From Eledone cirrhosa (lineage: Eukaryota), in assembly GCA_964016885.1 (NCBI GenBank), contig OZ024743.1:5022001-5086000 (forward strand): a stretch of 64,000 nucleotides of DNA. The letters run 5' to 3'. How positions within the stretch are numbered: the first letter of the stretch is position 1; every line of letters starts with the position of its first letter. The notes under the pieces were generated by a model that worked only from the letters and a program-made list of their open reading frames with translations, did not search any database and had not been told where the DNA came from. Shown here piece after piece: positions 2,505-64,000 of the stretch. A program made the position numbers and the translations under genes.

Positions 2505-3080
2505 CGATCACTTTTGATATATAACAATGGGGACCTAACCCCGGAAATCGACCGCCATGGTCATGCACTCCCTGTGGAAATCCCCTTGGTGTCACTTCTC
2601 TAACTCCTGGAAGACGAAGCTCCATATCTACAAAGCATCAGTCCTCTCTGTTCTCCTTTATGGAGCAGAAACGTGGCCCTTCACAAAGACCCTAGCAAAA
2701 GAAGACCGGCGGCTTCGATGGCAAAGAAGTGAGGACCATCGAGAACATCAGATGCTACCACCGTGTTTCCATGAAAGAGGTGCGCGCGAGCATGCATCAG
2801 CCCGCAGCCTCTCGTGTCATAGCCATCTGCCGTATGCGCTGGACATGTCTTCCGCCACCGGCCAGATCATCCTACCAGATCATTACTCTCGTTCGGTGCA
2901 GCAGCTGCAGGCTGGAAGAGGCCCCACGCCATTTGACTGGATGTCATCAAGGAAGATCTCGAGAGGCTCGACGTCACCTTCGAGAATACAGTGGGGCTGG
3001 CATGGGACCACCAGTAATGGAGGGCACTGGTGGATCTGGTTGGTTCTACACATGATGTCGCCTCTAGGGTGACACTAGTC
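2505..3080 (+). mobile_element. RTE-clade LINE 3' fragment (degenerate)
   Basis: TKLHIYKASVLSVLLYGAETW is the typical post-RT motif of RTE-type ORFs; frameshifted. Confidence 0.7.
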
Positions 3081-9053: not shown

Positions 9054-11029
9054 TTGTTGTCTGGTGGTATAACAACTGTACAGTAGGTATCTTTATTGTT
9101 GTCTGGTGGTATAACAACTGTACAGTAGGTATCTTTATTGTTGTCTGGTGGTATAACAACTGTACAGTAGGTATCTTTATTGTTGTCTGGTGGTATAACA
9201 ACTGTACAGTAGGTATCTTTATTGTTGTCTGGTGGTATAACAACTGTACAGTAGGTATCTTTATTGTTGTCTGGTGGTATAACAACTGTACAGTAGGTAT
9301 CTTTATTGTTGTCTGGTGGTATAACAACTGTACAGTAGGTATCTTTATTGTTGTCTGGTGGTATAACAACTGTACAGTAGGTATCTTTATTGTTGTCTGG
9401 TGGTATAACAACTGTACAGTAGGTATCTTTATTGTTGTCTGGTGGTATAACAACTGTACAGTAGGTATCTTTATTGTTGTCTGGTGGTATAACAACTGTA
9501 CAGTAGGTATCTTTATTGTTGTCTGGTGGTATAACAACTGTACAGTAGGTATCTTTATTGTTGTCTGGTGGTATAACAACTGTACAGTAGGTATCTTTAT
9601 TGTTGTCTGGTGGTATAACAACTGTACAGTAGGTATCTTTATTGTTGTCTGGTGGTATAACAACTGTACAGTAGGTATCTTTATTGTTGTCTGGTGGTAT
9701 AACAACTGTACAGTAGGTATCTTTATTGTTGTCTGGTGGTATAACAACTGTACAGTAGGTATCTTTATTGTTGTCTGGTGGTATAACAACTGTACAGTAG
9801 GTATCTTTATTGTTGTCTGGTGGTATAACAACTGTACAGTAGGTATCTTTATTGTTGTCTGGTGGTATAACAACTGTACAGTAGGTATCTTTATTGCTGT
9901 CTGGTGGTATAACAACTGTACAGTAGGTATCTTTATTGCTGTCTGGTGGTATAACAACTGTACAGTAGGTATCTTTATTGCTGTCTGGTGGTATAACAAC
10001 TGTACAGTAGGTATCTTTATTGCTGTCTGGTGGTATAACAACTGTACAGTAGGTATCTTTATTGCTGTCTGGTGGTATAACAACTGTACAGTAGGTATCT
10101 TTATTGTTGTCTGGTGGTATAACAACTGTACAGTAGGTATCTTTATTGCTGTCTGGTGGTATAACAACTGTACAGTAGGTATCTTTATTGCTGTCTGGTG
10201 GTATAACAACTGTACAGTAGGTATCTTTATTGCTGTCTGGTGGTATAACAACTGTACAGTAGGTATCTTTATTGCTGTCTGGTGGTATAACAACTGTACA
10301 GTAGGTATCTTTATTGCTGTCTGGTGGTATAACAACTGTACAGTAGGTATCTTTATTGTTGTCTGGTGGTATAACAACTGTACAGTAGGTATCTTTATTG
10401 CTGTCTGGTGGTATAACAACTGTACAGTAGGTATCTTTATTGTTGTCTGGTGGTATAACAACTGTACAGTAGGTATCTTTATTGCTGTCTGGTGGTATAA
10501 CAACTGTACAGTAGGTATCTTTATTGTTGTCTGGTGGTATAACAACTGTACAGTAGGTATCTTTATTGTTGTCTGGTGGTATAACAACTGTACAGTAGGT
10601 ATCTTTATTGTTGTCTGGTGGTATAACAACTGTACAGTAGGTATCTTTATTGCTGTCTGGTGGTATAACAACTGTACAGTAGGTATCTTTATTGCTGTTT
10701 GGTGGTATAACAACTGTACAGTAGGTATCTTTATTGCTGTCTGGTGGTATAACAACTGTACAGTAGGTATCTTTATTGTTGTCTGGTGGTATAACAACTG
10801 TACAGTAGGTATCTTTATTGTTGTCTGGTGGTATAACAACTGTACAGTAGGTATCTTTATTGTTGTCTGGTGGTATAACAACTGTACAGTAGGTATCTTT
10901 ATTGCTGTCTGGTGGTATAACAACTGTACAGTAGGTATCTTTATTGTTGTCTGGTGGTATAACAACTGTACAGTAGGTATCTTTATTGTTGTCTGGTGGT
11001 ATAACAACTGTACAGTAGGTATCTTTATT
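9054..11029. repeat. 42-bp tandem array, 47 copies (TTGTTGTCTGGTGGTATAACAACTGTACAGTAGGTATCTTTA)
   Basis: 1976 bp = 47x42+2; units nearly identical, one T/C polymorphic site; no spacers. Confidence 0.97.
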
Positions 11030-14196: not shown

Positions 14197-14650
14197 GGAA
14201 CTTCCACTCTCGAGTTCTATAAAGGATTAGTGGTGGACAAGTGCGACGACGCACTCAGCGAGGCTCTGGGCGTAGACGAAGTCGAAATGTCTAGTCTTTT
14301 CCGGAGGACTTTCAAACCGGGGACTATGGATAACTTCCAGAAATCCCTCGCTTGGCAGTGCTACCGGAGGGCACTGCCGGTTCGAGATGAACTCTACAAG
14401 CACGGAAGTACTGTCAGACGGACCTACCCGAGATGCGTCGAAACCGTTCTGTTCTGCACGATTTTGTCCAGTGTCCATGTGAAGTGACATGTGAAGTGTT
14501 GTTGCGTGTAGGACGGATCTGGCTATTGACCGAGTCCATAGTGAGGATGGCCCCGTCGCCTTCTTTTGGCTGGGAAGAGCAGGCAGTTGTCTGGTGGCGG
14601 TAGCGAAAGAGGCTATGTTGTGGACCAGGTTCAGAGGACTGAAGACAGAA
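14197..14650 (+). mobile_element. Tx1/L1 ORF2 3' fragment
   Basis: GTSTLEFYKGLV...MDNFQKSLAWQCYRRALPVRD homologous to ORF2 at ~26870-27350. Confidence 0.9.
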
Positions 14651-14975
14651 GTTTCTTTCTTACCGCATTGTCTAAAAATGCTCCGCAAAAGTTGGATCAA
14701 TTCAGATGACAGCAGTTATCTCCCTTACTTGCAATTCGAGATTTGAACATCTCAATGGGAGTTTCGTCGATGAAATTGTTTCAGATGATTAAAGTATTTT
14801 CCACTCGCCATTTTCTCAATATATATATATATATATATGTGTGTATGTGTGTTTGTGTGTGTGTGTGTGTGTGTGTAGTCGATGTTGCGCAGCAGAAGCT
14901 GAAGTCTAATGACTGAATCTAGTAAAAATGTACAATAAAAGAGAATATTTTCTCTTTCTCATATATGCATATATG

Positions 14976-18387: not shown

Positions 18388-18466
<79 letters not shown>

Positions 18467-18481
18467 ATTATTATTATTATT

Positions 18482-21400
18482 ATGGAGGTCGAACCACCCG
18501 ACCTTCACAAGACCCGGGAGGTAAGTAAACCTTCCCTCTCTTTCTCTCTCTTAGCTTACCAATATGGCCATATTAAGAGTAGGAAGTTTAAATGTTCGCG
18601 GCCTGGGGTCACCCTGGAAGCAGGGTCGCCTGCTCAACGACCTCCGGTCGCTGGAAATGGATGTGATTGCCGTAAACGAGACCAGAATTTCCGACACGCG
18701 CGCACTAGCCTCCATTTTCGACGACTATCAGATCTACGCATCTGTTAGCAGGCCGGGAATGGGGGGGTGGGGGGAGGGCAGTGCTGTTTAGGAAAGGACT
18801 GGATCTCGAGGTAAGGTCGATCTTCCGGGACCCGGACGGTAAGTTGGTGGTCTTGGATGTGAGCAGTAGCGAAGGTGGTGCCTTTAGACTGCTGGCCGTC
18901 TACGCCCCTACAGGAGCCGGACGACCTGACTTCTTTAGGCGCCTGGGGACCTTTCTGGGTACGTCTCGCCCTTTACTGTTAGCGGGGGACTGGAATGGCA
19001 TCTTAGACGCACGCTGGGATTGTGTGGGAGTAGCCGATAGGAGCAGGAGGGATCATCAACAACAGATGGTGGGGGGTTCTCAAAAGAGAGATTAGAGTAA
19101 CTTCGATAGAGTTCAGCAAAGAACTAGCGTTAGAGAAAAATAGAAAGGAGGGGGATCTGGTAGATAAGTTAGACGAGGCTATTTGTAGTGGCATCGCAAC
19201 TGACGTGCTAGCGGCGAGAATGGCATTAGACCATTTCTTCAATGCCAAACACGAAGGTTGCATTGTCAGAGATAAGGCGCGTGCGCTGAGAAACGAGGGA
19301 ACTAAAGTTGTTCGATGGGCCCGCGTGGCGGAGGCGCAGCGTGGTAATAAAACCACAATTCGGTCTTTGGCGGACCGAGACGGACACGAGATAACCGATT
19401 CCAAGCGGATGTGTGAGGCCTTTCGCCAGCACTTTGCTCGGTTGTTCAGGGAGAGTGGCGAGTCAGAGAGAGTAGCGGATTTCAGTCCCTACCTTGACGG
19501 CTTGCCGCGCATCTCGACGGTCGACGCTGAGCGCTGCGAAAGGCCGATTACTTCAGCCGAAATTCAGGACGCCCTTGTCGGCTGCATGAGGCGCAAGTCA
19601 CCCGGTTTGGATGGCCTGCCCTACGAGCTTTACATAAATATGCCAGACTTGTTCTCCGAACTCCTCGAAGCACTCTACTGCAACTGGCAGCAGAATGGGA
19701 GTATTCCCAGTTCTGTAAGCAGGGGAGTGGTGACGCTGATAAGGAAAGACGAGAACAAGAGGGATACATTAGACAACTTCAGGCCCATAACTCTTCTCAA
19801 CACAGAGTTTAAGATTTTGGCCAAGGTGTTAGCAAAGAGATTGGCGCTTGTCGTCGAGGATTTGGTTGGGGAGGCGCAAACTTGCGCAATCCCAGCCAGG
19901 TCCATACACGACAATCTCCACCTCATGCGATACATCATAGAGAGGGTAGGGTGTAAACCTGGCTTCGGTGGGGCACTGATCAATTTAGATCAATCGAAAG
20001 CATTCGATAGGGTCGACCATCGGTATCTGGAGTTTGTCCTCAAAGCAGCTGGCTTCGGCCCTGTCTTTAGAAGCTGGATCGTTGCAATGCACAGCGGCAC
20101 ACGCTCGGTGGTCAAGGTTAATGGCCACCTCTCGGAACCATTTCGGCTCTCCCGATCGGTCCGTCAAGGGTGCCCTCTCTCTTTCCTTCTGTACGTATTG
20201 ACTCTCGAGCCTTTACTGCGGAAGCTGGAGCTGTTGCAGGGCATCCCGCTCGAACCGGAACGTGGAAGGGCGGTCTCGGCTTATGCGGACGACATCACCG
20301 TGATGGTGTCGAACACCTCAGAAATCGAGGTGGTCGGCACCTTATTGAAGGAATATGAAAGGTTGACAGGAGCCAAACTTAACCCGGAAAAGTCGGTGGG
20401 CTTGCAGCTCGGAACCTGGAGAGGCAGGCCCATGCCGTCCAACAGCGTCGTGGGGCGCTGGACGGACGGACCGGTAAAGTTGCTCGGGGTTTGGTTCGGA
20501 CCCGACCTCCAGGTGGAAAAGAATTGGGACGAGGTAACGAGCAGAGTAACCAGTCTCACCCAAAAATGGGCTGGGAGGAAGCTATCACTGAAAGGTCGCG
20601 CGGAGGTGGCGAATGCGTACATCGCGTCCGTCATCTACTACCGCCTAACCGTCGTGCCTTGCCCCCGTCCGCGCCTCGTCAAGTTGGAACGACTCCTCTT
20701 CAAATTCTTGTGGAGAGGACAAGTTCCGTTGGTGAGGCGGTCCATCTGCTGCCAGCACCCTCTACGCGGAGGTATGAGGGTGGCTAATGATGCGCAGACA
20801 TGCGTTGAGGCTGCGACATCTCCAGATATTCTGCCTCAATGGTGAACAGGTGTGGTCGCCGTTTATCAGACGGGCCTTTCCGTAGCTCATTTCTTTGACT
20901 GAGCTGCAGTCCTGGGTCAAGAAGAGACCGAGACTGGGTGACTGGCACCTGGAATGTTGCCAGGCACTCACTGCCCTCTACCAAGCGGGCAATGCGATCA
21001 GTGGAACTTCCACTCTCGAGTTCTATAGAGGATTAGTGGTGGGCAAGTGCGATGACGCACTCGGAGAAGCTTTGGGCCTCGACGAAGTCGAACTGACCAG
21101 TCTGTACCGGAGGACTTTTGAGCCGGGGACGATGGACAATTTCCAGAAATCCCTCGCTTGGCAGTGCTACCGGGGGGCACTGCCGGTTCGGGATAAACTC
21201 TACAGGCACGGAAGTGCTGTCAGACGGACCTGCTCAAGATGCGCACAGAACGACGAAACCGTTCTGCACGCACTTGTCCAATGTCCGTGCATTACTGATT
21301 GTGGAGTTATGTCGAACAGCTACTGTCACGTGTGGAACGAATCCGGCTATCGGCCGAGTCCATAGTGAAGATCGAGCCGCCACCTTCCTTAGGTCAGGAA

Positions 21401-21943
21401 GAGCAGGAAATTTTCCTCTGTCTGGTGGCAGTTGCGAAAGGGATTATATGGTGGACCAGGTTGAAAGGACTAAAGACAGATACTTTTCTCTTCGGCCAAT
21501 CCCTCATCAACTTCTTCAAGTTTCACCTGGAAAGGAAGGTGAGGGTGGAGAGAGAAGTGCTGCCCCCCAGTACATTTGCTAAAAGGTGGGTGAATGTGGC
21601 GAGAATGGCTCGTGTGAATGGGCCTACTCTGACCATGCGCCTATAGGCTGGCTAACTTGAGGAGAGGGGTGCTCTCCCTGGGTGCCCTAGAAGCGCAGGG
21701 TGGTTCAGGATTGGTGGGGTACCCAAATCACCCCAGGGTCGTCCACCCCCTATCGGGGAATTTATTTTGTTATATTTATGCATAGTTTATTTTATATTTT
21801 TATATTTTCATTGTTAAATTAGTCTTGCCATTGTGCACTTTTACTCGACCTTATTGTAAACCCCCACTGTCCCTGTCTTTGTATTGTCCCCTACATGTCG
21901 GCCCTGGTGGCTAATAAATGAAATCATTATTATTATTATTATT
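18482..21943 (+). mobile_element. 5'-truncated, degenerate L1/Tx1-clade LINE (last codons of ORF1, broken ORF2, 3' UTR, (ATT)n tail)
   Basis: Colinear with 24019-27790; ~340-bp deletion near 19050, several frameshifts, in-frame TAG near 20883; preceded by (ATT)7. Confidence 0.95.
19205..20845 (+). pseudogene. Reverse transcriptase segment of degenerate ORF2
   Basis: KSPGLDG, FRPITLLN, DQSKAFD, QGCPLS, YADD motifs; reading frame broken at both ends. Confidence 0.9.
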
Positions 21944-22155
21944 GACGAAAGTGGATGTACGTTTTTTGAAGCTCCGTGAGTAAGCAATGTTTTGAGGATT
22001 AATTGTAGAGAATTGTTTATTTTTTGTACCGCTGAAGCATTATAAGACATTAATTTGTATCCTGTGAAGGAATAACTCATAATATTTGGGCCTTTTGGCC
22101 CAAATATTTGAACTTTATTTTGAAAAAAAAATAATAATTTTTTTCTCAAAAAAAC

Positions 22156-24066
22156 ATGGCGGAGCCACGCCCCCTAGAGGCGGGTCTGCTGTCGTGCAAC
22201 GGCGACTTGAGCGTTGAGAGGAGAGGTGAGGCGAGGAGCGCCACCAACACGAATGTGAGCAGCGACAGTGCCAGCACCAACGGGCCGAGCGGCGCGGAAG
22301 GTGGTAACAGCGACAACACCAACACCAACAAGCCGAACAGCGCAGAAGGTGGTAATAGCGAGAGCACCAACAAAACGAACAGCACAGAGAGTAATAGTAG
22401 CGACAGCAGCAGCACCAACAAGGCCAACAGCACAGAAGGTAACCACGACACAGGGGAGAACAACAACAGCAATAGCAGCAGCAACACCAACAAGAACAAC
22501 AACAGTGACAACACCAACAAGAACACTTTCGCTGCTGTGGCAGCGGCTAAAAGGAGACCATGCTACAGCATCGACTTAACCAACAGAGAGGAAAAGTTGG
22601 CCCAGGCCTGGAAAATCATAAATCAAGAGCAGACCTGGGCAAACTTAACTGTCCCGGCAGAAGCCATTGAGGCAGTGGAAAAAAGAACGGTGCATTTCAG
22701 ATGCATCTCAGTAGAGACAAAGAGGGCAGCGATAATCGCCCAAGCTGACATAGAAGCCGCACTGAAATACATCAGAGAGGACACAGACTTCATAGAGAGG
22801 GGCAGGCAATACGGCACCGTTTCGGTGCTGTTCAAGTCTGAAGCCCTCGCTGTGAAGCATTCAATGACCCCTTGCAAAACCAGCAAGGTCATAATGTACC
22901 CCTCCCACATGGGAAAACGAATAGCACGTGTGCGCATTCCCAGGATTCCACCAGGACTTGATATGTGGTGGCTCCTGGGTTGCGTAATCGTGGAAGGAAC
23001 GGATACAGTCCCGGTAGAGGCAACGAGAACTGCCAGGGACGACTGGTCCGGGGTTGATCTGGAGATACTGCTCCAAATCAGACCCGAAAACGTGAAAGCA
23101 ATCCCGGACCACATCCGCCTCCAAAACGGGAGGGTGTTGCATATAATGACTGAGGGCAAAAGTCCGCATTGTTTCCTTTGTGGGGAAACGACACACTTGC
23201 GAGCCTTCTGCCCTCAACTGCCGAAAAGCGCAAGGGGTCGAAAGATTCCACTGCTGGCGACGCCGGGACAAGGACCACCAGCAACACCGTCAACAATGGA
23301 ACCACCAAAATTGCACACCCAGGGGGGAAACGAGGAAAGCTCTCCCATTCCCCCTCCCCCCAAAAATACACACACGAACAAGAACATAAACACTCACTCA
23401 GACACAAACACGCTCACAGCCACAGACCCCTCATCCTCCAGCAGTGAAGATGAGGGAAAACCAAAGTCCCCCAAAATACAAAAAACAAAACACAAAAAAA
23501 AAAGAAATCCACAAAGCACAAACACCCCCACAAAAGAAAATACACACACCACCCACACAAACATTTTCCCCACAGCATCACCAACACAACCACCAAAATC
23601 CCCCAAACGCAAACAAGCTAAACAGACACAAGAACAAATAGACACACAAACATCAGAAACTACAGACACCCCACCCACAACAAACGCAGACACAATAGAA
23701 ACAACACTAACAAAGCTATCACCACCACAATCACACGAACAAATAAAACCCGAGCAACAAAACATTAAAAACTTCGTGCTTGCCAGAAGGGCCAACACGG
23801 AATTGATGGCCCATGTAGCACGAAGCACAAACATCGAAAAAGACGGGGAAACATTTGAAGCGAGCACATTTCGCGTACCAGATAATTTGCTTCTGATGCG
23901 AATGTCGCTCGCTTCATACAAAGAAATTCGAAAGAGCTTTCCTCGGGATGTGGGAACCCCGAACGTAAAACCCACGTCAAGACTATTAAAGGGGTTCCCA
24001 AAAGAAACCCCACAAACCATGGAGGTCGAACCACCCGACCTTCACAAGACCCCGGAAGGTAAGTAA
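22156..24066 (+). CDS. LINE ORF1 protein (636 aa) with CCHC zinc knuckle
   Basis: ATG-initiated open frame; CFLCGETTHLRAFC (CX2CX4HX4C) at ~23170-23211; low-complexity N- and C-terminal arms; directly upstream of ORF2. Confidence 0.9.
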   Translation: MAEPRPLEAGLLSCNGDLSVERRGEARSATNTNVSSDSASTNGPSGAEGGNSDNTNTNKPNSAEGGNSESTNKTNSTESNSSDSSSTNKANSTEGNHDTGENNNSNSSSNTNKNNNSDNTNKNTFAAVAAAKRRPCYSIDLTNREEKLAQAWKIINQEQTWANLTVPAEAIEAVEKRTVHFRCISVETKRAAIIAQADIEAALKYIREDTDFIERGRQYGTVSVLFKSEALAVKHSMTPCKTSKVIMYPSHMGKRIARVRIPRIPPGLDMWWLLGCVIVEGTDTVPVEATRTARDDWSGVDLEILLQIRPENVKAIPDHIRLQNGRVLHIMTEGKSPHCFLCGETTHLRAFCPQLPKSARGRKIPLLATPGQGPPATPSTMEPPKLHTQGGNEESSPIPPPPKNTHTNKNINTHSDTNTLTATDPSSSSSEDEGKPKSPKIQKTKHKKKRNPQSTNTPTKENTHTTHTNIFPTASPTQPPKSPKRKQAKQTQEQIDTQTSETTDTPPTTNADTIETTLTKLSPPQSHEQIKPEQQNIKNFVLARRANTELMAHVARSTNIEKDGETFEASTFRVPDNLLLMRMSLASYKEIRKSFPRDVGTPNVKPTSRLLKGFPKETPQTMEVEPPDLHKTPEGK

Positions 24067-24095
24067 ACCTTTCCTCTCCCATTCATCCTGCCAGC

Positions 24096-27000
24096 ATGGC
24101 CATAAGAGTAGGAAGTTTAAATGTTCGTGGCCTGGGGTCGCCCTGGAAGCAAGGTCACTTGCTCAACGACCTCAGGTCACTAGGAATGGATGTAATTGCC
24201 ATCAGCGAGACCAGAATTTCCGACACACGCGCACTGGCGCCGATTTTCGACGATTATCAGATCTTTGCATCTGTTAGTCGGCCGGGAATGGGAGGTGGAG
24301 TGGCTGTGCTGTTTAGGAAATGTCTGGATCTCGAGGTAAGGTCAATCTTCCGGGATCCTGACGGAAAGTTGGTGGTCCTGGACGTGAGCAATAGCGAAGG
24401 TGGTGCCTTTAGACTGGTGGCCGTCTACGCCCCTACTGGGGCCGGTCGGCCGGACTTCTTTAGGCGCCTGGAAAACTTTCTGCTTACGTCTCGCCCTTTA
24501 CTGTTAATAGGGGATTGGAATGGCATCTTAGAAGCACGCTGGGATTGTGTGGGAGTATCTGATAGGAGCGGGGGGTGCAAAAGCCTCAAGTACCTGATCA
24601 GCCAGTTTCAACTGTCTGACAGGTACCGACTAGATTTCCCTAATGCGCCAGTATGGACCTGGACCAATCGCATAGGGTCATCTAGATCGTACATAGATAG
24701 GATTTTCATTAGGAAAAGAGATAGAAATAGTGTAGGATGTCCACATTTTAAAACGGTTGCCTATTCAGATCACAAGCTTGTGATCTGTATGGTCGACCTA
24801 GATAAGACACGTAGGTTAGGACCTAGCTACTGGAAGCTAAACATGTCGTTTCCGGCACGTAAAGCTTACAGGGACCGGGTCAACAACTTAGTTAAGCAAA
24901 AGTTGACAGGGGGGGTTGTCAACAACAGGTGGTGGGGGGCACTCAAAAGAGAGATTAGAGCAACCTCGATAGGATTTAGCAAAGAAGTAGCAATAGAGAA
25001 AAATAGAAAGGAGGAGGGGCTGATAGCTAAGTTAGACGAGGCTATTTGTAGTGGCATTGCAACAGACGTGCTAGCGGCGAGAATGGCACTAGACCATTTC
25101 TTCAATGCGAAACACGAAGGTTGCATTGTCAGAGCTAAGGCGCGTGCTCTGAGGAACGAGGGAACCAAAGCTGCCCGATGGGCTCGCTTTGCAGAGACGC
25201 AGCGTGGAAATAAAACCACAATTCGGTCTTTGACGGATCGAGATGGACACGAACTGAGCGATTCCAAGCGGATGTGTGAGGCCTTTCGCCAGCACTTTGC
25301 TCGATTGTTCGGGAGGATGGGTGAGTCGGAGACGGCGGCGGACTTCAGTCCCTACCTCGACGGCTTGCCACGCCTCTCGACGGCCGACGCTGAGCGCTGC
25401 GAAGAGCCGATAACATCAGCCGAAATTCAGGACGCCCTTGTCGGCTGCTCGAGTCGCAAGTCACCCGGTTTGGATGGTCTGCCCTACGAGCTTTACGTAA
25501 ATATGCCAGACTTGTTCTCCGATCTCCTCGAAGCGCTCTACTGCAACTGGCAGCAGAACGGGAGCATTCCCAGTTCTGTGAGCCGTGGCGTAGTGACGCT
25601 GATAAGGAAAGACGAGAACAAGAGGGACACACTAGATAATTTCAGGCCCATAACCCTGCTCAACACAGAGTTTAAGATTTTGGCCAAGGTGTTAGCGAAA
25701 AGGTTGGCGCTTGTCGTCAAAGATTTGGTTGGGGAGGCGCAAACTTGCGCAATCCCGACCAGGTCCATACACGACAACCTCCACCTCATGCGATACATCA
25801 TAGAGAGGGTTGGGTGCAAACCTGGCTTCGGTGGGGCTCTGATCAATTTAGATCAATCGAAAGCATTCGATAGGGTCGACCATCGGTACTTGGAGGCTGT
25901 CCTCGAGGCGGCTGGCTTCGGCCCCGTCTTCAGAAGCTGGATCGCTGCAATGTACAGCGGCATCCGCTCGGTGGTCAAAGTTAATGGCCACCTCTCGGAA
26001 CCGTTTCAGATCTCTCGATCGGTCCGTCAAGGGTGCCCTCTCTCCTCACTTCTGTACGTATTGACTCTTGAGCCTCTACTGCGGAAGCTGGAGTTGTTGC
26101 AGGGCATCCCGCTCGAACCGGGACGTAGAAAGGCTGCGTCCGCTTATGCGGACGACATCACCGTGATGGTGTCGGACACCTCGGAAATCGAGGTGATCCG
26201 CACCCATTTGGAGGAATATGAAAGGTTGACGGGAGCAAAACTTAACCCGGAAAAGTCGGTGGGCTTGCAGCTCGGCACCTGGAGAGGCAAGTCCATGCCG
26301 TCCAACAGCGTCGTTGGGCGCTGGACAGACGGACCGGTAAAGTTGCTCGGGGTTTGGTTCGGACCAGACCTCCAGGTGGATAAGAATTGGGACGAGGTGA
26401 CGAGCAGGATAGCCAACCTCACCCAGAAATGGGCTGAGAGAAAGCTATCACTGAAAGGGCGGGCGGAGGTGGCGAACGCGTACATCGCGTCCGTCATCTA
26501 CTACCGCCTGACCGTCGTGCCTTGCCCCCGTCCACGCCTCGCCAATTTGGAACGGCTCCTTTTCAAATTTTTGTGGAGGGGACGGGTCCCGTTGGTGAGG
26601 CGGTCCATCTGCTGCCAGCACCCTCTTCGTGGAGGGCTGGGCATGCCGTGGCTAATGATGCGCAGACATGCGCTGAGGCTGCGACATCTCCAGATATTTT
26701 GCCTAAACGGTGAACAGGTGTGGTCGCCGTTTGTTAGACGGGCCTTTCCGCAGCTCATCTCTTTGACTGAGCTGCAGTCCTGGGTCAAGAAGAGACCGAG
26801 ACTGGGCGACTGGCATCTGGAATGTTGCCAGGCGCTCACTGCACTCTGCAAGGTGGGCAATGCGGTCAGTGGAACTTCCACTCAAGATTTCTATAGAGGA
26901 TTAGTGGAGGGCAAGTGCGATGACGTACTAGGAGAGGCTCTGGGCGTCAACGAAGTAGAACTGACCAGTATGTTCCGGAGGACTTTCGAGCCGGGGACGA

Positions 27001-27515
27001 TGGATAACTTCCAGAAATCCCTCGCTTGGCAGTGCTACCGGGGGGCGCTGCCGGTTCGAGATAAACTCTACAGGCACGGAAGTGCTGTCAGACGAACCTG
27101 CCCGAGATGCGCGCAGAGCGACGAAACCGTTCTGCACGCACTCGTCCAGTGTCCGTGCATTGCTGACTTGTGGGGTTATGTCGAACAGCTATTGTCGCGT
27201 GTAGAACGGATCCGGCTATCGTCCGAGTCCATAGTGAAGATTGACCCGCCGCCTTCTTTTGGTCAGGAAGGGCAGGCAATTTTCCTCTGCCTGGTGGCAG
27301 TAGCGAAAGAGGTTGCATGGTGGACCAGGTTGAAAGGACTGAAGACAGACACTTTTCTCTTCGGCCAATCCCTCATCAACTTCTTCAAGTTTCACTTGGA
27401 AAGGAAGGTGAGGGTGGAGAGAGAAGTGCTGCCCCCCAGTACATTTACTGAAAGGTGGGTGAATGTGGCGAGAATGGCCCGCGTGAGTGGGCCTACTCTG
27501 ATCATGCGCCTGTAG
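24096..27515 (+). CDS. LINE ORF2 protein (1139 aa): APE endonuclease, reverse transcriptase, C-terminal zinc motif
   Basis: SLNVRGL, SET, GDWN, IDRIF, SDH (APE); YWKLN (L1/Tx1); QGCPLS, YADD (RT); CPRC..H...C. Confidence 0.96.
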   Translation: MAIRVGSLNVRGLGSPWKQGHLLNDLRSLGMDVIAISETRISDTRALAPIFDDYQIFASVSRPGMGGGVAVLFRKCLDLEVRSIFRDPDGKLVVLDVSNSEGGAFRLVAVYAPTGAGRPDFFRRLENFLLTSRPLLLIGDWNGILEARWDCVGVSDRSGGCKSLKYLISQFQLSDRYRLDFPNAPVWTWTNRIGSSRSYIDRIFIRKRDRNSVGCPHFKTVAYSDHKLVICMVDLDKTRRLGPSYWKLNMSFPARKAYRDRVNNLVKQKLTGGVVNNRWWGALKREIRATSIGFSKEVAIEKNRKEEGLIAKLDEAICSGIATDVLAARMALDHFFNAKHEGCIVRAKARALRNEGTKAARWARFAETQRGNKTTIRSLTDRDGHELSDSKRMCEAFRQHFARLFGRMGESETAADFSPYLDGLPRLSTADAERCEEPITSAEIQDALVGCSSRKSPGLDGLPYELYVNMPDLFSDLLEALYCNWQQNGSIPSSVSRGVVTLIRKDENKRDTLDNFRPITLLNTEFKILAKVLAKRLALVVKDLVGEAQTCAIPTRSIHDNLHLMRYIIERVGCKPGFGGALINLDQSKAFDRVDHRYLEAVLEAAGFGPVFRSWIAAMYSGIRSVVKVNGHLSEPFQISRSVRQGCPLSSLLYVLTLEPLLRKLELLQGIPLEPGRRKAASAYADDITVMVSDTSEIEVIRTHLEEYERLTGAKLNPEKSVGLQLGTWRGKSMPSNSVVGRWTDGPVKLLGVWFGPDLQVDKNWDEVTSRIANLTQKWAERKLSLKGRAEVANAYIASVIYYRLTVVPCPRPRLANLERLLFKFLWRGRVPLVRRSICCQHPLRGGLGMPWLMMRRHALRLRHLQIFCLNGEQVWSPFVRRAFPQLISLTELQSWVKKRPRLGDWHLECCQALTALCKVGNAVSGTSTQDFYRGLVEGKCDDVLGEALGVNEVELTSMFRRTFEPGTMDNFQKSLAWQCYRGALPVRDKLYRHGSAVRRTCPRCAQSDETVLHALVQCPCIADLWGYVEQLLSRVERIRLSSESIVKIDPPPSFGQEGQAIFLCLVAVAKEVAWWTRLKGLKTDTFLFGQSLINFFKFHLERKVRVEREVLPPSTFTERWVNVARMARVSGPTLIMRL

Positions 27516-27963
27516 GCTGGTGAATTCGAGAAGGAGAGGGGTGCCCTTCCCGGGTGCCCTAGGAGCGTCGGGTGGCTCAGGACTGGTGGGGTGCTTGAGT
27601 CAACCCTGGGTGGTGATCCCTCTTATTGGGGAACTTTCATTGTTGTATTTTTATTGTTATTTTGTTTTTGTTTTTTTTGTTATTTATACTTACTCGATCT
27701 CTATGTAAACCCCCACTGTCCCTGTCTATTGTGTTGTCCCCTATATGTCGGCCCTTGTGGCCAATAAATGAAATCATTATTATTATTATTATATATATAT
27801 ACAGTATATACACACACACACACATATATATATATCTATATACATACTCACACACACACACACGCTCGCGCGCGCGCGCATACACTTACAGCAAGGCACG
27901 CGTGGAGATATCTACATATATTTATATTCAGGCCCAGAAATATATGGAGCATCTGGCTAGCTG

Positions 27964-41667: not shown

Positions 41668-42965
41668 CTGTGTCTGTGTCTGTGTGTGCGTGTGTGTGCG
41701 TGTGTGTGTGTGTGTGTGTAGCAGCTGCTGCTGCAACATGAGTAAAAGTTCTAATATGGGTGGCACTTGAGCTTTATGCAACTGATGTGTGTTTTGGAAA
41801 AATCGTCAGGGCCTTGTGTTATTTGTTCCAGGTCCTTGCATTCAGAGTTTAAATCCCACTGTAACCTACTTAGGTGGTAGACTTGATCGGTAACCTTCGA
41901 TAGCCAGGTTTATCAAACCTCTTCTTACAATTTCCCGGCCGTACCTCTGGTTTCAATAAACATCCTAACTACCAATCTTGGAGACCTTGAAAAAAATCAA
42001 GGGTCATCGACACCGCCTTTCTTCCTGACAAAGATATAAAATAAAGAAAATGACTAGTCTTGGGAAAGCAGGTTTGTCAAGGTAATAAACAGACAACGGC
42101 CATTTCCATGTATATTTCCTACTACTAGACACAGAGGGCGCTAGAGAGGGAAATAATGTCGGGAAGCGTCAAAATAAGGAGATAGATTTGTTAGCTGTAT
42201 ATTGTTATTGTGTTTGTATAAACTCTAATGGGCCCTGATAGAGCAGGTATAGGATCAAAGGCGTTCCTGTCAGATCATCACTTGCTAGATGTACCTATGA
42301 CTACATTATTTTATGTATCCTCCTCTTTTCCAGATATAGGAATGAGATTTGGCTGCAATTTCTAAGAATTCGAACATGTGTACATGTGTGAACGCATACT
42401 TATATATGTGTATGTATGTGTGTATGTGTATGTGTGTGTGTACACGTGCGAATGTGTGCGTTTCTGCATGTGCATTTGGGTGTGCGTATTAATGTGAGCT
42501 TGCATGTATGCGCATGTATTTACATGTATTTGTCGGCGTAAATGTGTGTGTGGGTGCGTGAACGTAGATACATTTGATAAAGGGAGTAAATTAATCGTTC
42601 AAACCTGGTCACAGCAGTTATGGGATTAAATTCAGAATCAATTAATAAACACAATAAATGAATATCAATGATATTATAGAATCATAATTATACAGCAATA
42701 TAGCCTCCTTCCTTTCCTGTAATTCCGGAGGGTGTCGGGGGGGCGCCGTTATGACATACGGCATTTTGGGGGCACTTTTTAAAACTGGGTGGAGCCCATC
42801 ACCTCTGCAGATCTGAATAGAGCAGATTTCTTCCAGAGAAGGATAGAGAATGAGCGAAAGAATGAAAGTGAAAAGGAGATATAGAAGAAGGATCGGATCG
42901 TCCAGTACTCGACTGATACTTTTCTTATTGACCTCGAAAAGATTAAAGGCAAATATGAACTCAAC

Positions 42966-43945
42966 GAGACTGGGCACCTGGCATCTGGAATGATGTCAAG
43001 CGCTCACTGCCCTCTACCAGCCGGGCAATGTGGCCAATGGGAATTCCACTCTAGAGTTCTATAAAGGACTAGTGGTAGAAAAGTGAGACGACGTTCACGA
43101 TGTGGCTCTGGGCGTCGACGAAATCGAACTGGCCAGTCTTTTCTGGAGAACTTTTGAACCGGGAACAATGGACAACTTTCAAAAGTCCCTGGCTTGGCCG
43201 TGCTACCCGAGGGTACTGTCGGTTCGAGATAAACTCTACAGGCATGAAAGTGCTGTCAGACGGACCTGTTCAAGATGCGTGCAGAACGATGAAGCCGTTC
43301 TGCACGCCCTCGTCCAATGTCCGTGCATTACTGATTTGTGGATTTTTGAACAGCTATTATCGCCTGTAGGACAGATCTAGCTATCGACCAAGTTCAGGGT
43401 GAAGTTCTTTTGACCGGTAAGGGCAGGCAGTTTTCTTCTGTCTTGTGGCTGTAGCGTAAGAGGTTGTGTGGTGGACGTGGCTGAAAGTACTAAATATAGG
43501 CACGTTTCTCTTCAGTCAAGCCCTCATCAACTTTTTCAAGTTTCATTTGAAAAGGAAGGAGAGGGTGGAGAGGGAAGCGCTGTCCTAAGTACATTTGTTA
43601 AAAGGTGGGTAAATGTAGCGAGGATAGCCCGAGTGAATAGTCCTACTCTGACCATGTGCCTGTAGACTGAATAGTTTGGAGAGGTGAGGGGCGCTCTCTT
43701 GGGCTGCTCTTGGAGAGTAGGGTTGTTTAGGATTTGTGGGGCTCCTAAATCACACCTACGTGGTACTCCCCATCCCCTATTGGGGAATTTTCATTGATAT
43801 ATACTTTGTTGTTTATTGTTACCTGTTATCTTTTTTTTACTCGCTTTTTTGTACCCCACCCCCACTGTCCCTGTTTTTTGGGGATTTATTGTCCGCTATG
43901 TAATGGCCCTTGTGGCCAATATAGAAATAATAATTAGTATTATCA
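42966..43945 (+). mobile_element. 5'-truncated older Tx1/L1 copy (ORF2 end, 3' UTR, tail)
   Basis: RTFEPGTMDNFQKSLAW, RWVNVARIARVNSPTLTMCL; ends GGCCCTTGTGGCCAATATAGAAATAATAATT. Confidence 0.9.
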
Positions 43946-51588: not shown

Positions 51589-52060
51589 CAGACCTGTCAA
51601 ATCTCCCCGTCCGACAGGGAGATCCCCCCACTGACTCTGGGTTGGGTGAGAGATGTCTTCTCTTGTGAAATGGGTATAGCTTTCATTATGTAAAATCGGG
51701 GTGGGCGGTGGATTGGCAGTATCAGTAGAGAGTCGGACGCCATGCTTTCCAGCATAGTTACGTCCCTTTACGATCTGAGTTCAAATCCCGCCGAGGTTGA
51801 CTTTGCCTTTCATCCTTACGGGGTCGATAAAATAAAGTACCAGTAATGTACTGGTTAATTGCTGGCCTTGTGCCTAAAGTAGAAACAATTATGTAAAATC
51901 GCTCCATTTTACCTCACTTCTCCCCGTTTTGGGGCACTTTTTTTCGTGGTACTCCCCGTTTTATTTGGCAGGTCTGTATACATTCATATAGTTAACATGG
52001 TACTCCCCGTTATATATGGCAGGTCTGTATACATTCATATAGTTATATTTGGCAGGTCTG
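51589..52060. mobile_element. MITE (TIR CAGACCTG(T/C)CAA) with triplicated right end, interrupted by a SINE; relative at ~12620-12742
   Basis: CAGACCTGTCAA at 51589; TGGCAGGTCTG three times 51966-52060; shared internal block with 12627-12715. Confidence 0.6.
51702..51901 (+). mobile_element. tRNA-derived SINE, full length
   Basis: 14-bp TSD ATTATGTAAAATCG at 51685-51698 and 51888-51901. Confidence 0.9.
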
Positions 52061-52820: not shown

Positions 52821-52829
52821 GAAATCAGT

Positions 52830-53215
52830 TTTCATTGTGGTGTCGGCCCAATAGTCGGTTCCGTCCTACACGTGACAATAGTTGTTCGACAAAACTCCAC
52901 AAGTCAGTAATACTTTGACTCTGGACGAGTGTTTGTAGAACGGTTTCGTCATTCTGTGCGCGTCTCAGACCGTTCGATATAACAGCACTTCCGTGCTTGT
53001 AGAGTTTGTCTCGAACTAGCAGTGAATTTCCAAAAGCACTGCTAGGCCAAGAATTTCTGGAAATTATCCATAGGCTCCGGACCGAAAGTCCTTCGGAACA
53101 GACTTGCTTGTTCGTTCTGGTCAACGCCAAGAGTCTCCCCGAGAACAACGTCGCACCTACTCGCCACTAGTCATCTATAGAAAACTAATGTGGAATTTCC
53201 TCTGACCACATTGCC
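52830..53215 (-). mobile_element. Old Tx1/L1 ORF2 3' fragment
   Basis: LVRDKLYKHGSAV..AQNDETVLQTLVQ..DLWSFVEQLLSRV. Confidence 0.85.
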
Positions 53216-54138
53216 TGATAATATTACAAATGCCAGGCGCTTAGTCCCTATGACTGTCTTGTGATGGTGACGGGGTGTTTTTTTATTTTTATTTTAGAGG
53301 CATAATTTTCAAATATAATTGCAATATTTGAGCCGAAGGCCCAAATATAGTGGAGTCGCCTTTTCTGCGTGCAATGTATGGCGCACTGTTTACAAACATG
53401 ACAAACATTTTGCCAAGGAACGTTATGCAAACAAGTAAAATCAACAAAACTTATGGAGTAAAAGTATGCGTGACGACTACTTGAGAAACCAATAATAATA
53501 ATAAATAAAAATATAAAAAAATAGCGTGCAGTTCTGAAAAGTAGCATAATCCGCTACTTGTAACCAAATCCGGTAACCCAGTACGGGAACACATAACATT
53601 GTTTTTGTTTTGTATCGTGTTTGCTTTATTTTGTCTTGCGGTTAATGTTTTTTTACACCCACTACCATTCCACTTCATAAATGTCCCAATTTAACTTCAC
53701 ATTGTGAGGTCATCGGTACAGCAGTCTCCTGCATCGGACATTATCTCAGCTGGTCCCATACTCCCTGTTCACCGCCTGCCAATCGACCTTTCCGTAGCGT
53801 TGTCATACTTTACTTGCCACACTTGCTCACACGTGTCCTTAGTCCATCTTCCCATTCACTGTAGTCATTCCGTGAACAAAGAATAACACTAAATCAGAGT
53901 TCAAAAGTATAAATACACACAGAAGAGAACTACAACAGACGAGGGTACGCTTTCTTTTATTTCTTTCCTTGTTTCAATCATTAGACTGCGGTCATACTGG
54001 AGCACCACTTTCATTCCTCACCCACCCCCATTCCTTAATTTTTCAAATTCGGTACCAAATTTATCGATCCCTTTTGTCGATCCTCTAGTTTACGGAACAT
54101 AAATACAGATAGATAAAAAACGTAAATCACGTCACACC

Positions 54139-61201: not shown

Positions 61202-61669
61202 TAAGAGGAATTCCAACTTTGTCTGATTTACTCGTTTTATTTACAATCCTTTAAAATTTATAATGGTATTATAATGAAATAGTATGATAGAATATTAAAT
61301 TCTAAGTGTTAATTGAACAAGTACTTTCATGCTTTCACAATCTTAAGGTTCATAATGTGTGGTGACAGTCAAGTTTGCAATTTTCAACTGTAATAAGATG
61401 GGTAAATTTTCTACCTTTTATACATTTTATACAGGGAAAAGTAGCTCCAGAATCCTAAGTCTTGCAAACTGTATTTCGACCAATCAGTGTGTAGTTTCAC
61501 TGTATTGCTAAAGCTGATTGGTTTAAGCGTCATGGCTGGTTGAGCATGTCTAACGACCAATAATTAATCATATCCAAAGCATCAATTGTTTTGCTATTTT
61601 TAGAAATGATGAAAATAGCATTTTCTATTAATCATCACCATCAACATCACTTTTATTATTATTATTATT

Positions 61670-64000
61670 GACGAAAGTGGATGTACGTTTTTTGAAGCTC
61701 CGTGAGTAAGCAATTTTTGAGGATTAATTGTAGAGAATTGTTTATTTTTTGTACCGCTGAAGCATTATAAGACATTAATTTGTATCCTGTGAAGGAATAA
61801 CTCATAATATTTGGGCCTTTTGGCCCAAATATTTGAACTTTATTTTGAAAAAAAAATAATAATTTTTTTCTCAAAAAAACATGGCGGAGCCACGCCCCCT
61901 AGAGGCGGGTCTGCTGTCGTGCAACGGCGACTTGAGCGTTGAGAGGAGAGGTGAGGCGAGGAGCGCCACCAGCACGAATGTGAGCAGCGACAGTGCCAGC
62001 ACCAACGGGCCGAGCGGCGCGGAAGGTGGTAACAGCGACAACACCAACACCAACAAGCCGAACAGCGCAGAAGGTGGTAATAGCGAGAGCACCAACAAAA
62101 CGAACAGCACAAAGAGTAATAGTAGCGACAGCAACAGCACCAACAAGGCCAACAACACAGAGGGTAACCACGACACAGGGGAGAACAACAACAGCAATAG
62201 CAGCAGCAAAACCAACAAGAACAACAACAGTGACAACACCAACAAGAACACCTTCGCTGCTGTGGCAGCGGCTAAAAGGAGACCATGCTACAGCATCGAC
62301 TTAACCAACAGAGAGGAAAAGTTGGCCCAGGCCTGGAAAATCATAAATCAAGAGCAGACCTGGGCAAACTTAACTGTCCCGGCAGAAGCCATTGAGGCAG
62401 TGGAAAAAAGAACGGTGCATTTCAGATGCATCTCAGTAGAAACAAAGAGGGCAGCGATAATCGCCCAAGCTGATATAGAAGCCGCACTGAAATACATCAG
62501 AGAGGACACAGACTTCATAGAGAGGGGCAGGCAATACGGCACCGTTTCGGTGCTGTTCAAGTCTGAAGCCCTCGCTGTGAAGCATTCAATGACCCCTTGC
62601 AAAACCAGCAAGGTTATAATGTACCCCTCCCACATGGGAAAACGAATAGCACGTGTGCGCATTCCCAGGATTCCACCAGGACTTGATATGTGGTGGCTCC
62701 TGGGTTGCGTAATCGTGGAAGGAACGGATACAGTCCCGGTAGAGGCAACGAGAACTGCCAGGGACGACTGGTCCGGGGTTGATCTGGAGATACTGCTCCA
62801 AATCAGACCCGAAAACGTAAAAGCAATCCCGGACCACATCCGCCTCCAAAACGGGAGGGTGTTGCATATAATGACTGAGGGCAAAAGGCCGCATTGTTTC
62901 CTTTGTGGGGAAACGACACACTTGCGAGCCTTCTGCCCTCAACTGCCGAAAAGCGCAAGGGGTCGAAAGATTCCACTGCTGGCGACGCCGGGACAAGGAC
63001 CACCAGCAACACCGTCAACAATGGAACCACCAAAATTGCACACCCAGGGGGGAAACGAGGAAAGCTCTCCCATTCCCCCTCCCCCCCCCAAAATACACAC
63101 ACGAACAAGAACATAAACACTCACTCAGACACAAACACGCTCACAGCCACAGACCCCTCATCCTCCAGCAGTGAAGATGAGGGAAAACCAAAGTCCCCCA
63201 AAATACAAAAAACAAAACACAAAAAAAAAAGAAATCCACAAAGCACAAACACCCCCACAAAAGAAAATACACACACCACCCACACAAACATTTTCCCCAC
63301 AGCATCACCAACACAACCACCAAAATCCCCCAAACGCAAACAAGCTAGACAGACACAAGAACAAATAGACACACAAACATCAGAAACTACAGACACCCCA
63401 CCCACAACAAACGCAGACACAATAGAAACAACACTAACAAAGCTATCACCACCACAATCACACGAACAAATAAAACCCGAGCAACAAAACATTAAAAACT
63501 TCGTGCTTGCCAGAAGGGCCAACAAGGAATTGATGGCCCATGTAGCACGAAGCACAAACATCGAAAAAGACGGGGAAACATTTGAAGCGAGCACATTTCG
63601 CGTACCAGATAATTTGCTTCTGATGCGAATGTCGCTCGCTTCATACAAAGAAATTCGAAAGAGCTTTCCTCGGGATGTGGGAACCCCGAACGTAAAACCC
63701 ACGTCAAGACTATTAAAGGGGTTCCCAAAAGAAACCCCACAAACCATGGAGGTCGAACCACCCGACCTTCACAAGACCCCGGAAGGTAAGTAAACCTTTC
63801 CTCTCCCATTCATCCTGCCAGCATGGCCATAAGAGTAGGAAGTTTAAATGTTCGTGGCCTGGGGTCGCCCTGGAAGCAAGGTCACTTGCTCAACGACCTC
63901 AGGTCACTAGGAATGGATGTAATTGCCATCAGCGAGACCAGAATTTCCGACACACGCGCACTGGCGCCGATTTTCGACGATTATCAGATCTTTGCATCTG
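61670..64000 (+). mobile_element. Second young Tx1/L1 copy with complete 5' end (runs off window)
   Basis: Near-identical to 21944-24273; preceded by (ATT)5; ORF2 start at 63823. Confidence 0.95.
61881..63793 (+). CDS. LINE ORF1, frameshifted in a poly-C run at ~63081-63089
   Basis: 411-aa and 299-aa ORFs together reconstruct the 636-aa ORF1; shift lies in a homopolymer (possible sequencing error). Confidence 0.75.

Follow-up and report, generated by a model that had tools for sequence, protein, structure and literature searches.

An L1/Tx1-type LINE of Eledone cirrhosa with a strong preference for (ATT)n microsatellites and a probable AUU leader at its 5' end

The stretch of Eledone cirrhosa DNA analysed here (contig OZ024743.1, positions 5,022,001 to 5,086,000; G000:C4:5022001-5086000 in our own naming), in the following called the window, comprises 64,000 nucleotides (nt) of a genome of 3.0 Gb in 1796 contigs and harbours three major copies of a long interspersed nuclear element (LINE), each of which begins directly behind an (ATT)n tract. 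This raises the question of whether such tracts are the target of the element or cargo that it brings along, and of how the joint between tract and element comes to be so exact. A preliminary description of the window had proposed an ATT-specific family of the Tx1 group that inserts into ATT repeats, including its own tails, and so builds tandems. ATT targeting as such can be stated with high confidence, the preference being real, strong and present throughout the genome in this young L1/Tx1-type family. As for the mechanism, the reading favoured here, which is given a probability of about 0.6, is that this young LINE enters ATT repeats with AUU repeats at both ends of its RNA pairing with the target.

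The ends of the element were counted as exact-pattern matches over the whole genome, and the queries for the common 3' end and for the 5' end of subfamily A contained no ATT run, so that ATT was not selected for. For the 5' end of the subfamily to which the intact copy of the window belongs (subfamily A) 316 matches were obtained, 310 of which follow ATTATTATT|G. The same holds for 225 of 239 5' ends of subfamily B, which is approximately 86% identical to A and has a different 5' end, and two further sister families likewise start ATT|G. Since an (ATT)≥3 run ends at a given background position with a frequency of only 0.00014, the ATT flank of subfamily A lies far above chance, and the ATT-specific family that had been postulated is borne out by both subfamilies. 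At the other side of the element, the common 29-nt 3' end was matched 1201 times and continues with ATTATT in 1009 cases, so that the termination in ATT instead of poly(A), first seen in the window, holds genome-wide. A 3' marker specific for subfamily A gave 334 matches; from these and the 316 5' ends it follows that about 95% of the subfamily A copies are full length. A sample from contig C1, comprising 97 of the 100 3' ends that head its listing, contained 31 copies scored as young A: 27 full-length ones and four others, among which two pieces of 29-31 nt are unassignable. In 24 of 55 subfamily A copies neither of the two open reading frames (ORFs) is interrupted; between dispersed copies the median difference amounts to 36 substitutions.

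In the window the following parts were distinguished:

18461..18481, plus strand: (ATT)7 tract upstream of the older copy
18482..21925, plus strand: older LINE copy, 5'-truncated at element position 2076, with a broken ORF2
21926..21943, plus strand: (ATT)6 between the 3' end of the older copy and the 5' G of the intact copy
21944..27775, plus strand: intact full-length LINE of subfamily A, 5832 nt
22081..22108, plus strand: perfect palindrome/hairpin in the 5' untranslated region (UTR) of the intact copy (folding z -5.3 for 22040-22160)
22156..24066, plus strand: ORF1, 636 amino acids (aa), CCHC knuckle at residue 339
24096..27515, plus strand: ORF2, 1139 aa, with APE endonuclease (7-226), reverse transcriptase (RT, 509-753) and zf-RVT (974-1026)
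27763..27775, plus strand: terminal AATAAATGAAATC with a polyadenylation-signal-like hexamer 7 nt ahead of the ATT run
27776..27790, plus strand: (ATT)5 downstream of the intact copy
61655..61669, plus strand: (ATT)5 upstream of the third copy, in an unrelated flank
61670..64000, plus strand: third copy (L061), a further full-length member of subfamily A, present here with its 5' part and extending beyond the window end

The tracts from which the three copies had been said to start (18461-18481, 21926-21943 and 61655-61669) proved exact to the nucleotide. It was also correct that the intact copy sits in the tail of the older one, the two being joined by the (ATT)6 at 21926-21943, and that the copy at 61670 lies in an unrelated ATT tract. 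Junctions of the same kind as the former, with exactly six ATT units, occur 25 times genome-wide. The older copy shows 86-89% identity to the intact one and an internal loss of about 330 nt (approximately element positions 2633-2963); in both, AATAAATGAAATC stands directly before ATT (at 21913 and 27763). The third copy differs from the intact copy by 20 substitutions (99.6% identity), has a frameshifted ORF1, and its 3' end outside the window is again followed by (ATT)5. Only five (ATT)≥5 tracts are present on the plus strand of the window, and four of them touch these LINE copies. Older 3' remnants of the same LINE clan, of 76-79% identity, were seen at 42965-43943, 14197-14674 and 52825-53284.

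The context of the insertions revealed that the ATT tracts are largely targets and older DNA, namely tails of sister LINEs, of short interspersed nuclear elements (SINEs) and of an R4/Dong-like LINE. In a scripted classification of the sequence upstream of 57 full-length copies of the C1 sample, 5 own-type tails, 18 sister-family tails, 9 SINE tails (among which L192 looks misclassed by eye) and 25 other tracts were found. By exact patterns, Tx1-type tails make up 13 of the 28 countable upstream tracts (3 own, 10 sister), with 19 tracts preceded by T being uncountable and standing outside the 28. Genome-wide, such tails account for 9263 of at least 67,123 (ATT)≥5 tracts (13.8%, including 7300 sister-pattern matches, all counted here as putative LINE ends); their enrichment upstream of the element is significant at p 3e-5, and own tails alone reach p 0.05. 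Downstream, the sequence passes into the (AAT)n tail of an opposite-strand LINE in 7 of 97 copies, into the head of a SINE in 13 and into own or sister heads in 9; L007 and L008 lie upstream of the head of a sister family that has an ORF1 of 33-34% identity and likewise starts ATT|G. Moreover, the same interruption of the repeat is found on both flanks of five full-length copies (L147, L134, L173, L131 and L114), so that this part of the apparent tail is duplicated target; beyond the duplication, L134 has extra 3' ATT units and L131 none. The ATT run behind the 3' end, formerly taken as the tail of the element, is thus in part duplicated target, as in L147 and L131. Tracts that are mostly older DNA, together with some duplicated flanks with common interruptions, argue for targeting.

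Several neighbouring observations concern the tracts themselves. L006, L014, L028, L084, L112, L168, L169, L170 and L173 have entered, apparently independently of one another, a single ATT tract within a different dispersed repeat, which makes this tract a hot-spot target. Downstream of L005, L009, L011 and L018 lies a near-intact opposite-strand LINE with an R4/Dong-like C-terminal region and 463 aa open, which meets the element tail-to-tail in the same ATT/AAT tract; it matches the C-terminal region of R2 weakly (E 0.005), and we take it to be of R4/Dong type from its motifs. For L171 no empty-site joint was present among 15 of 629 contig joints listed, which is uninformative.

Copies without a 5' end were considered separately. 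Altogether 122 loci were examined, 74 of which were full length and 48 not. Removal of 11 rearranged copies and of one that had been split by a later insertion, and addition of the older copy of the window, resulted in a truncated set of 37. L099, L120, L129, L130, L141, L146, L149, L187, L194, L205 and L209 were set aside because of internal rearrangement, a chimeric structure or a deletion spanning a tandem junction, with L149 being counted as full length; the set of 37 mixes the C1 sample, loci chosen for having no listed 5' end and some loci from an ATTATT list. ATTATT was found within 25 nt of the 5' junction in 16 of these 37 truncated copies versus all 85 sampled full-length copies (Fisher p 6e-14), which at a background rate of 1.8% still corresponds to an approximately 24-fold enrichment for the truncated ones. 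The preliminary description had named non-ATT flanks at most truncated copies as what would speak against an ATT-specific family; by the strict rule such flanks are in the majority (21 of 37), yet the enrichment among the remainder persists. Seven of the 21 (L073, L076, L080, L096, L126, L138 and L190) look ATT-linked by eye. Clear duplications of 15-17 nt, starting with AT(T) and ending in non-ATT sequence, flank truncated L140, L117 and L126 (17 nt in L140 and L117), and in several copies the duplicated flanks start with ATT and reach about 17-18 nt.

It is very improbable that no real target choice takes place and that an RNA with ATT repeats at both ends enters any AT-rich site, bringing the tracts along. 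The truncated copies without ATTATT at their 5' junction would suit this explanation, as would SINEs that have a similar duplication signature and insert at a single ATTAT. However, it leaves unexplained why full-length copies lie directly behind the tails of other elements, ahead of sister-family heads or tail-to-tail with R4/Dong-like (AAT)n tails (7/97), why interruptions are duplicated on both sides, and why even truncated copies are enriched for ATTATT.

The exact 5' joint of full-length copies calls for more than the choice of an ATT tract. Of 27 full-length copies with a right-hand ATT run interrupted in its first four units, 22 lack a copy of this interruption on the left, where the flank still ends ATT|G; a fixed stagger of 15-18 nt therefore cannot yield full-length joints. 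L162 and L164 have six ATT units on the left versus two on the right, and relative to the target anchored by a common GTT the left flank is one ATT unit longer in L131 and two units longer in the C1 array. Judged from these junctions, the exact ATT|G joint would be accounted for best if the RNA carried an (AUU)n leader. The 5' ATT beside full-length copies is accordingly to be seen as probably in part RNA-derived, which explains the precise joint and is no refutation of targeting.

In the mechanism proposed here, the APE domain would nick the (AAT) strand, for which one or two ATT units may suffice. RNA read past AAUAAA into AUU repeats would pair with the nicked strand and prime reverse transcription, with some copies gaining extra 3' ATT units and others none. 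The second strand would be cut about 15-18 nt downstream without a strict sequence requirement, as the truncated copies suggest. Full-length RNA would start inside the upstream ATT tract of the donor, and its cDNA would end in (AAT)n and anneal to the ATT run of the target, giving the fixed ATT|G joint; this annealing may be the reason why full-length copies dominate. Each insertion would leave ATT tracts on both sides, available for reuse by the same family and by sister families.

Alternatively, the endonuclease alone might account for the joints, provided that both strands are cut sequence-specifically in long (ATT)n with variable stagger, that the RNA starts, leaderless, at the G and that all flanking ATT is duplicated target. 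The clean duplications with common interruptions in full-length L147, L134 and L173 would be expected from this, and L131 and the last unit of the array, both passing directly into GTT without ATT of their own, agree with it. It is nevertheless unlikely, because the duplications of the truncated copies L140, L117 and L126 end in non-ATT sequence and the second cut is thus not bound to ATT, because full-length and truncated junctions differ (85/85 vs 16/37), and because the left tracts of L131 and of the array are longer than the anchored target.

Under the reading with AUU repeats at both RNA ends, arrays would be a product of repeated insertion. On contig C1, 13 adjacent head-to-tail pairs were detected among 55 full-length subfamily A 5' ends, 9 of them within one array, which confirms the tandems recognized in the window as a recurring arrangement. 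This array (C1:423,361,000-423,421,000; L153-L159) consists of ten full-length copies head-to-tail over 58 kb, has (ATT)5 at all nine junctions and abuts, tail-to-tail, a 3' end of the same family in inverted orientation. Its units are 0-42 substitutions apart and occupy separate branches of the tree. From 5' to 3' they lie increasingly far from the youngest dispersed copies (rho 0.94), a gradient in keeping with additions at the head. In the window and in arrays on C2, C4 and at C1:181 Mb the most upstream unit is older, which fits additions at the tail. Newer copies ahead of older ones were found at L128, at L007 and in the C1 array.

An origin of the tandems chiefly in unequal crossing-over, segmental duplication or assembly error, and not in repeated insertion, is quite improbable. 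L111 and L112 do not differ from each other but are separated by at least 21 substitutions from every other copy, and arr02 equals arr03 in the ten-copy array, which points to local duplication at these places; the uniform (ATT)5 at all nine array junctions would also agree with such an origin. On the other hand, array units up to 42 substitutions apart, at separate tree positions and with an age gradient, are not expected from it, nor are the many tandems that join different subfamilies or families (the window; L127/L128; L007 and L008). For the most part, arrays grow by repeated insertion, which takes place at either end; local duplication contributes to some extent. The notion that the family creates its own next target has to be widened: tails of the whole clan supply 13 of 28 upstream tracts, but own tails are a minor target (3/28, against 10/28 for sister tails), and insertion ahead of older copies occurs as well.

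Several points weigh against the favoured reading. Besides the majority of truncated copies without ATTATT at the junction and the identical tandem pairs, 14 truncated copies are free of both ATT and duplications. Target DNA may have been deleted or lost in these at a later time, and for 13 of the 14 (all but L189) no displaced 5' part was found in the 10-16 kb upstream. Among 14 truncated copies searched, such a part was detected for L123 alone, and L123 was then removed from the set; distances are approximate for L174 and L074, where the sequence retrieved from further upstream does not reach the locus itself. A strict test for duplicated breaks was passed by 2 of 18 truncated copies, no more than by full-length ones (5 of 27; informative copies in both cases), and as it was passed so rarely, the stagger of 15-18 nt rests on few clear cases. 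The putative AUU leader and AUU 3' end are read from DNA junctions only, as is the agreement of these junctions with R1-like 5' joining. Finally, the extra ATT units come from two loci, where slippage after insertion could explain them.

A tRNA-like SINE may be connected with this LINE. Its 3' end resembles the last 25 nt of the LINE and is then followed by ATTAT, although the similarity is modest, with the terminal 30-nt window tying for best with three windows of one other region among 2322. A duplicated 10-mer, mostly starting in ATTAT, was found in 27 of 65 SINE head-tail pairs versus a mean of 4 in shuffled pairings; many of the 65 pairs adjoin these LINEs. The SINE is thus a candidate passenger of this LINE family, and another LINE could be its partner. 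Its copies (e.g. window 51703-51900, L219 and L225) are abundant and show duplications of 10-18 nt starting in ATTAT.

A broader reading is tentative and, as a whole, rather doubtful. A clan of at least four Tx1-type families with different 5' ends, all ATT|G, would pair via AUU at both RNA ends and insert about 95% of its copies full length and base-precise; it would build and reuse a shared ATT pool (tails up to 14% of counted (ATT)≥5 tracts), share it with opposite-strand Dong-like elements and mobilise the abundant tRNA-derived SINE. Taken together, the earlier view of the locus was right in outline, to which looser junctions of truncated copies, a probable RNA leader and a target pool common to several families are now added.

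Classification of the element was based on its two ORFs. In ORF2, PF03372, PF00078 and PF13966 were each found above cut-off with catalytic-type motifs present, and the layout of N-terminal APE, RT and C-terminal zinc motif is that of the L1 superfamily (L1/Tx1). The RT is nearer to L1 than to R2 (L1 ORF2p E 5e-57; R2 proteins E 3e-22 or weaker) in a PDB search that covered L1 and R2-type proteins, RTE, CR1 and Jockey references not being among them. ORF1 carries a zinc knuckle of the form CX2CX4HX4C at residue 339 and matched zf-CCHC and ZCCHC3-like RNA-binding protein clusters in the Atlas (0.90-0.93); it had no Pfam match and hence no Transposase_22. An ORF1 of RRM/CCHC type, as present here, is described as consistent with Tx1 in the accessible part of PMC5203782. 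The Tx1 label is a provisional one that fits the domain layout, and no named Tx1 sequence (such as Tx1, Keno, Kibi or Koshi) was returned by the reference searches. With one repeat type in more than 20% of the flanks as the mark of a microsatellite-specific family (accessible part of PMC4494074), the element qualifies through ATT. Kibi or Koshi proper are excluded, as the flanks are (ATT)n and not (TC)n or (TTC)n. Membership in Dong/R4, a clade with a C-terminal restriction-like endonuclease and without APE, is ruled out by the N-terminal APE domain.

A ribozyme at the 5' G was also considered; Rfam gave nothing near the gathering score for 21600-22200, by which a divergent ribozyme would still be possible, and 21926-22060 folds no better than shuffles (z 0.86). 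Strong structure at the 3' end was likewise unsupported by folding (z 0.88 and -0.05). The 5' UTR hairpin of subfamily A is identical in subfamily B, and the two further sister families carry hairpins at a similar place. Heads of these families were seen in L007, L008, L020 and L103 and in L081, L119, L120 and L145, with G directly after (ATT)n and the hairpin about 140-190 nt in. The subfamily B copies L100, L107 and L141 are broken at the hairpin (positions 131-147), where the RT may stall or deletions may be frequent. L205 (= L020) is a chimera in which the 3' 1.46 kb of subfamily A (98%) are fused to the 5' part of a sister family, by template switch or recombination. Elsewhere in the window, a 42-nt minisatellite of 47 copies (99% matches, three frames open) occupies 9054-11029, and a remnant without ATT tail at 2539-3072 resembles the C-terminal part of another LINE, presumably RTE-like.

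Among known systems, the closest in target type are Kibi with (TC)n and Koshi with (TTC)n in teleosts and the crocodilian (TTCC)n/(TTTC)n families, which the accessible part of PMC4494074 assigns to the Tx1 clade; the two teleost families had been cited correctly in the preliminary description. Like the present element they are APE-type LINEs of the L1/Tx1 group entering microsatellites, whereas the target here is (ATT)n and the genome of invertebrate type. A repeat leader, an excess of full-length copies and mixed-family arrays, as seen here, find no mention for these families in that part of the source. No ATT-targeting Tx1 family was found in the literature searched; as figure 3 or the supplements of PMC4494074 may list one, this does not show that none has been published. 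An octopus annotation counts L1-Tx1 among the recently active elements; its accessible part names no target (PMC13282606). If the model is true, microsatellite targeting in the Tx1 group extends to (ATT)n, and the element may be what drives a major SINE as well as many of the ATT microsatellites of this genome.

Human L1 ORF2p (PDB 8sxt and others) is the best structural relative, with E 5e-57 over endonuclease and RT. Human L1 differs in its poly(A) tail and Transposase_22 ORF1, and its copies are mostly truncated. The duplications observed here are similar in length to the 15 bp of L1 (accessible part of PMC4245944). The approximately 320 near-identical copies offer a natural system for studying why LINE insertions mostly end up truncated but those of this family do not.

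Dong belongs to the R4 clade and has a restriction-like endonuclease. In silkworm, mosquito and snail it targets (TAA)n, the same microsatellite, according to the accessible part of PMC3812793, which lists Dong among APE types. For the precise joint, the nearest parallel is R1 of Drosophila in 28S rDNA: in melanogaster-type R1, Stage and Eickbush attributed precise full-length 5' joints to target sequence at the RNA's 5' end, and R1 tandems were explained by insertion into duplicated target (PMC2718515). Tandem arrays separated by duplicated target and truncated copies with ordinary duplications are common to both systems, and R1 is thus a precedent for the steps of leader annealing and tract reuse (PMC2718515). 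The two differ in clade and target, the latter being here a dispersed microsatellite (at least 67,123 tracts) common to several families. If true, the model would place an R1-style target-leader route to precise 5' joining within the L1 superfamily. Each component has a precedent, and the element is a useful variant and not a new class.

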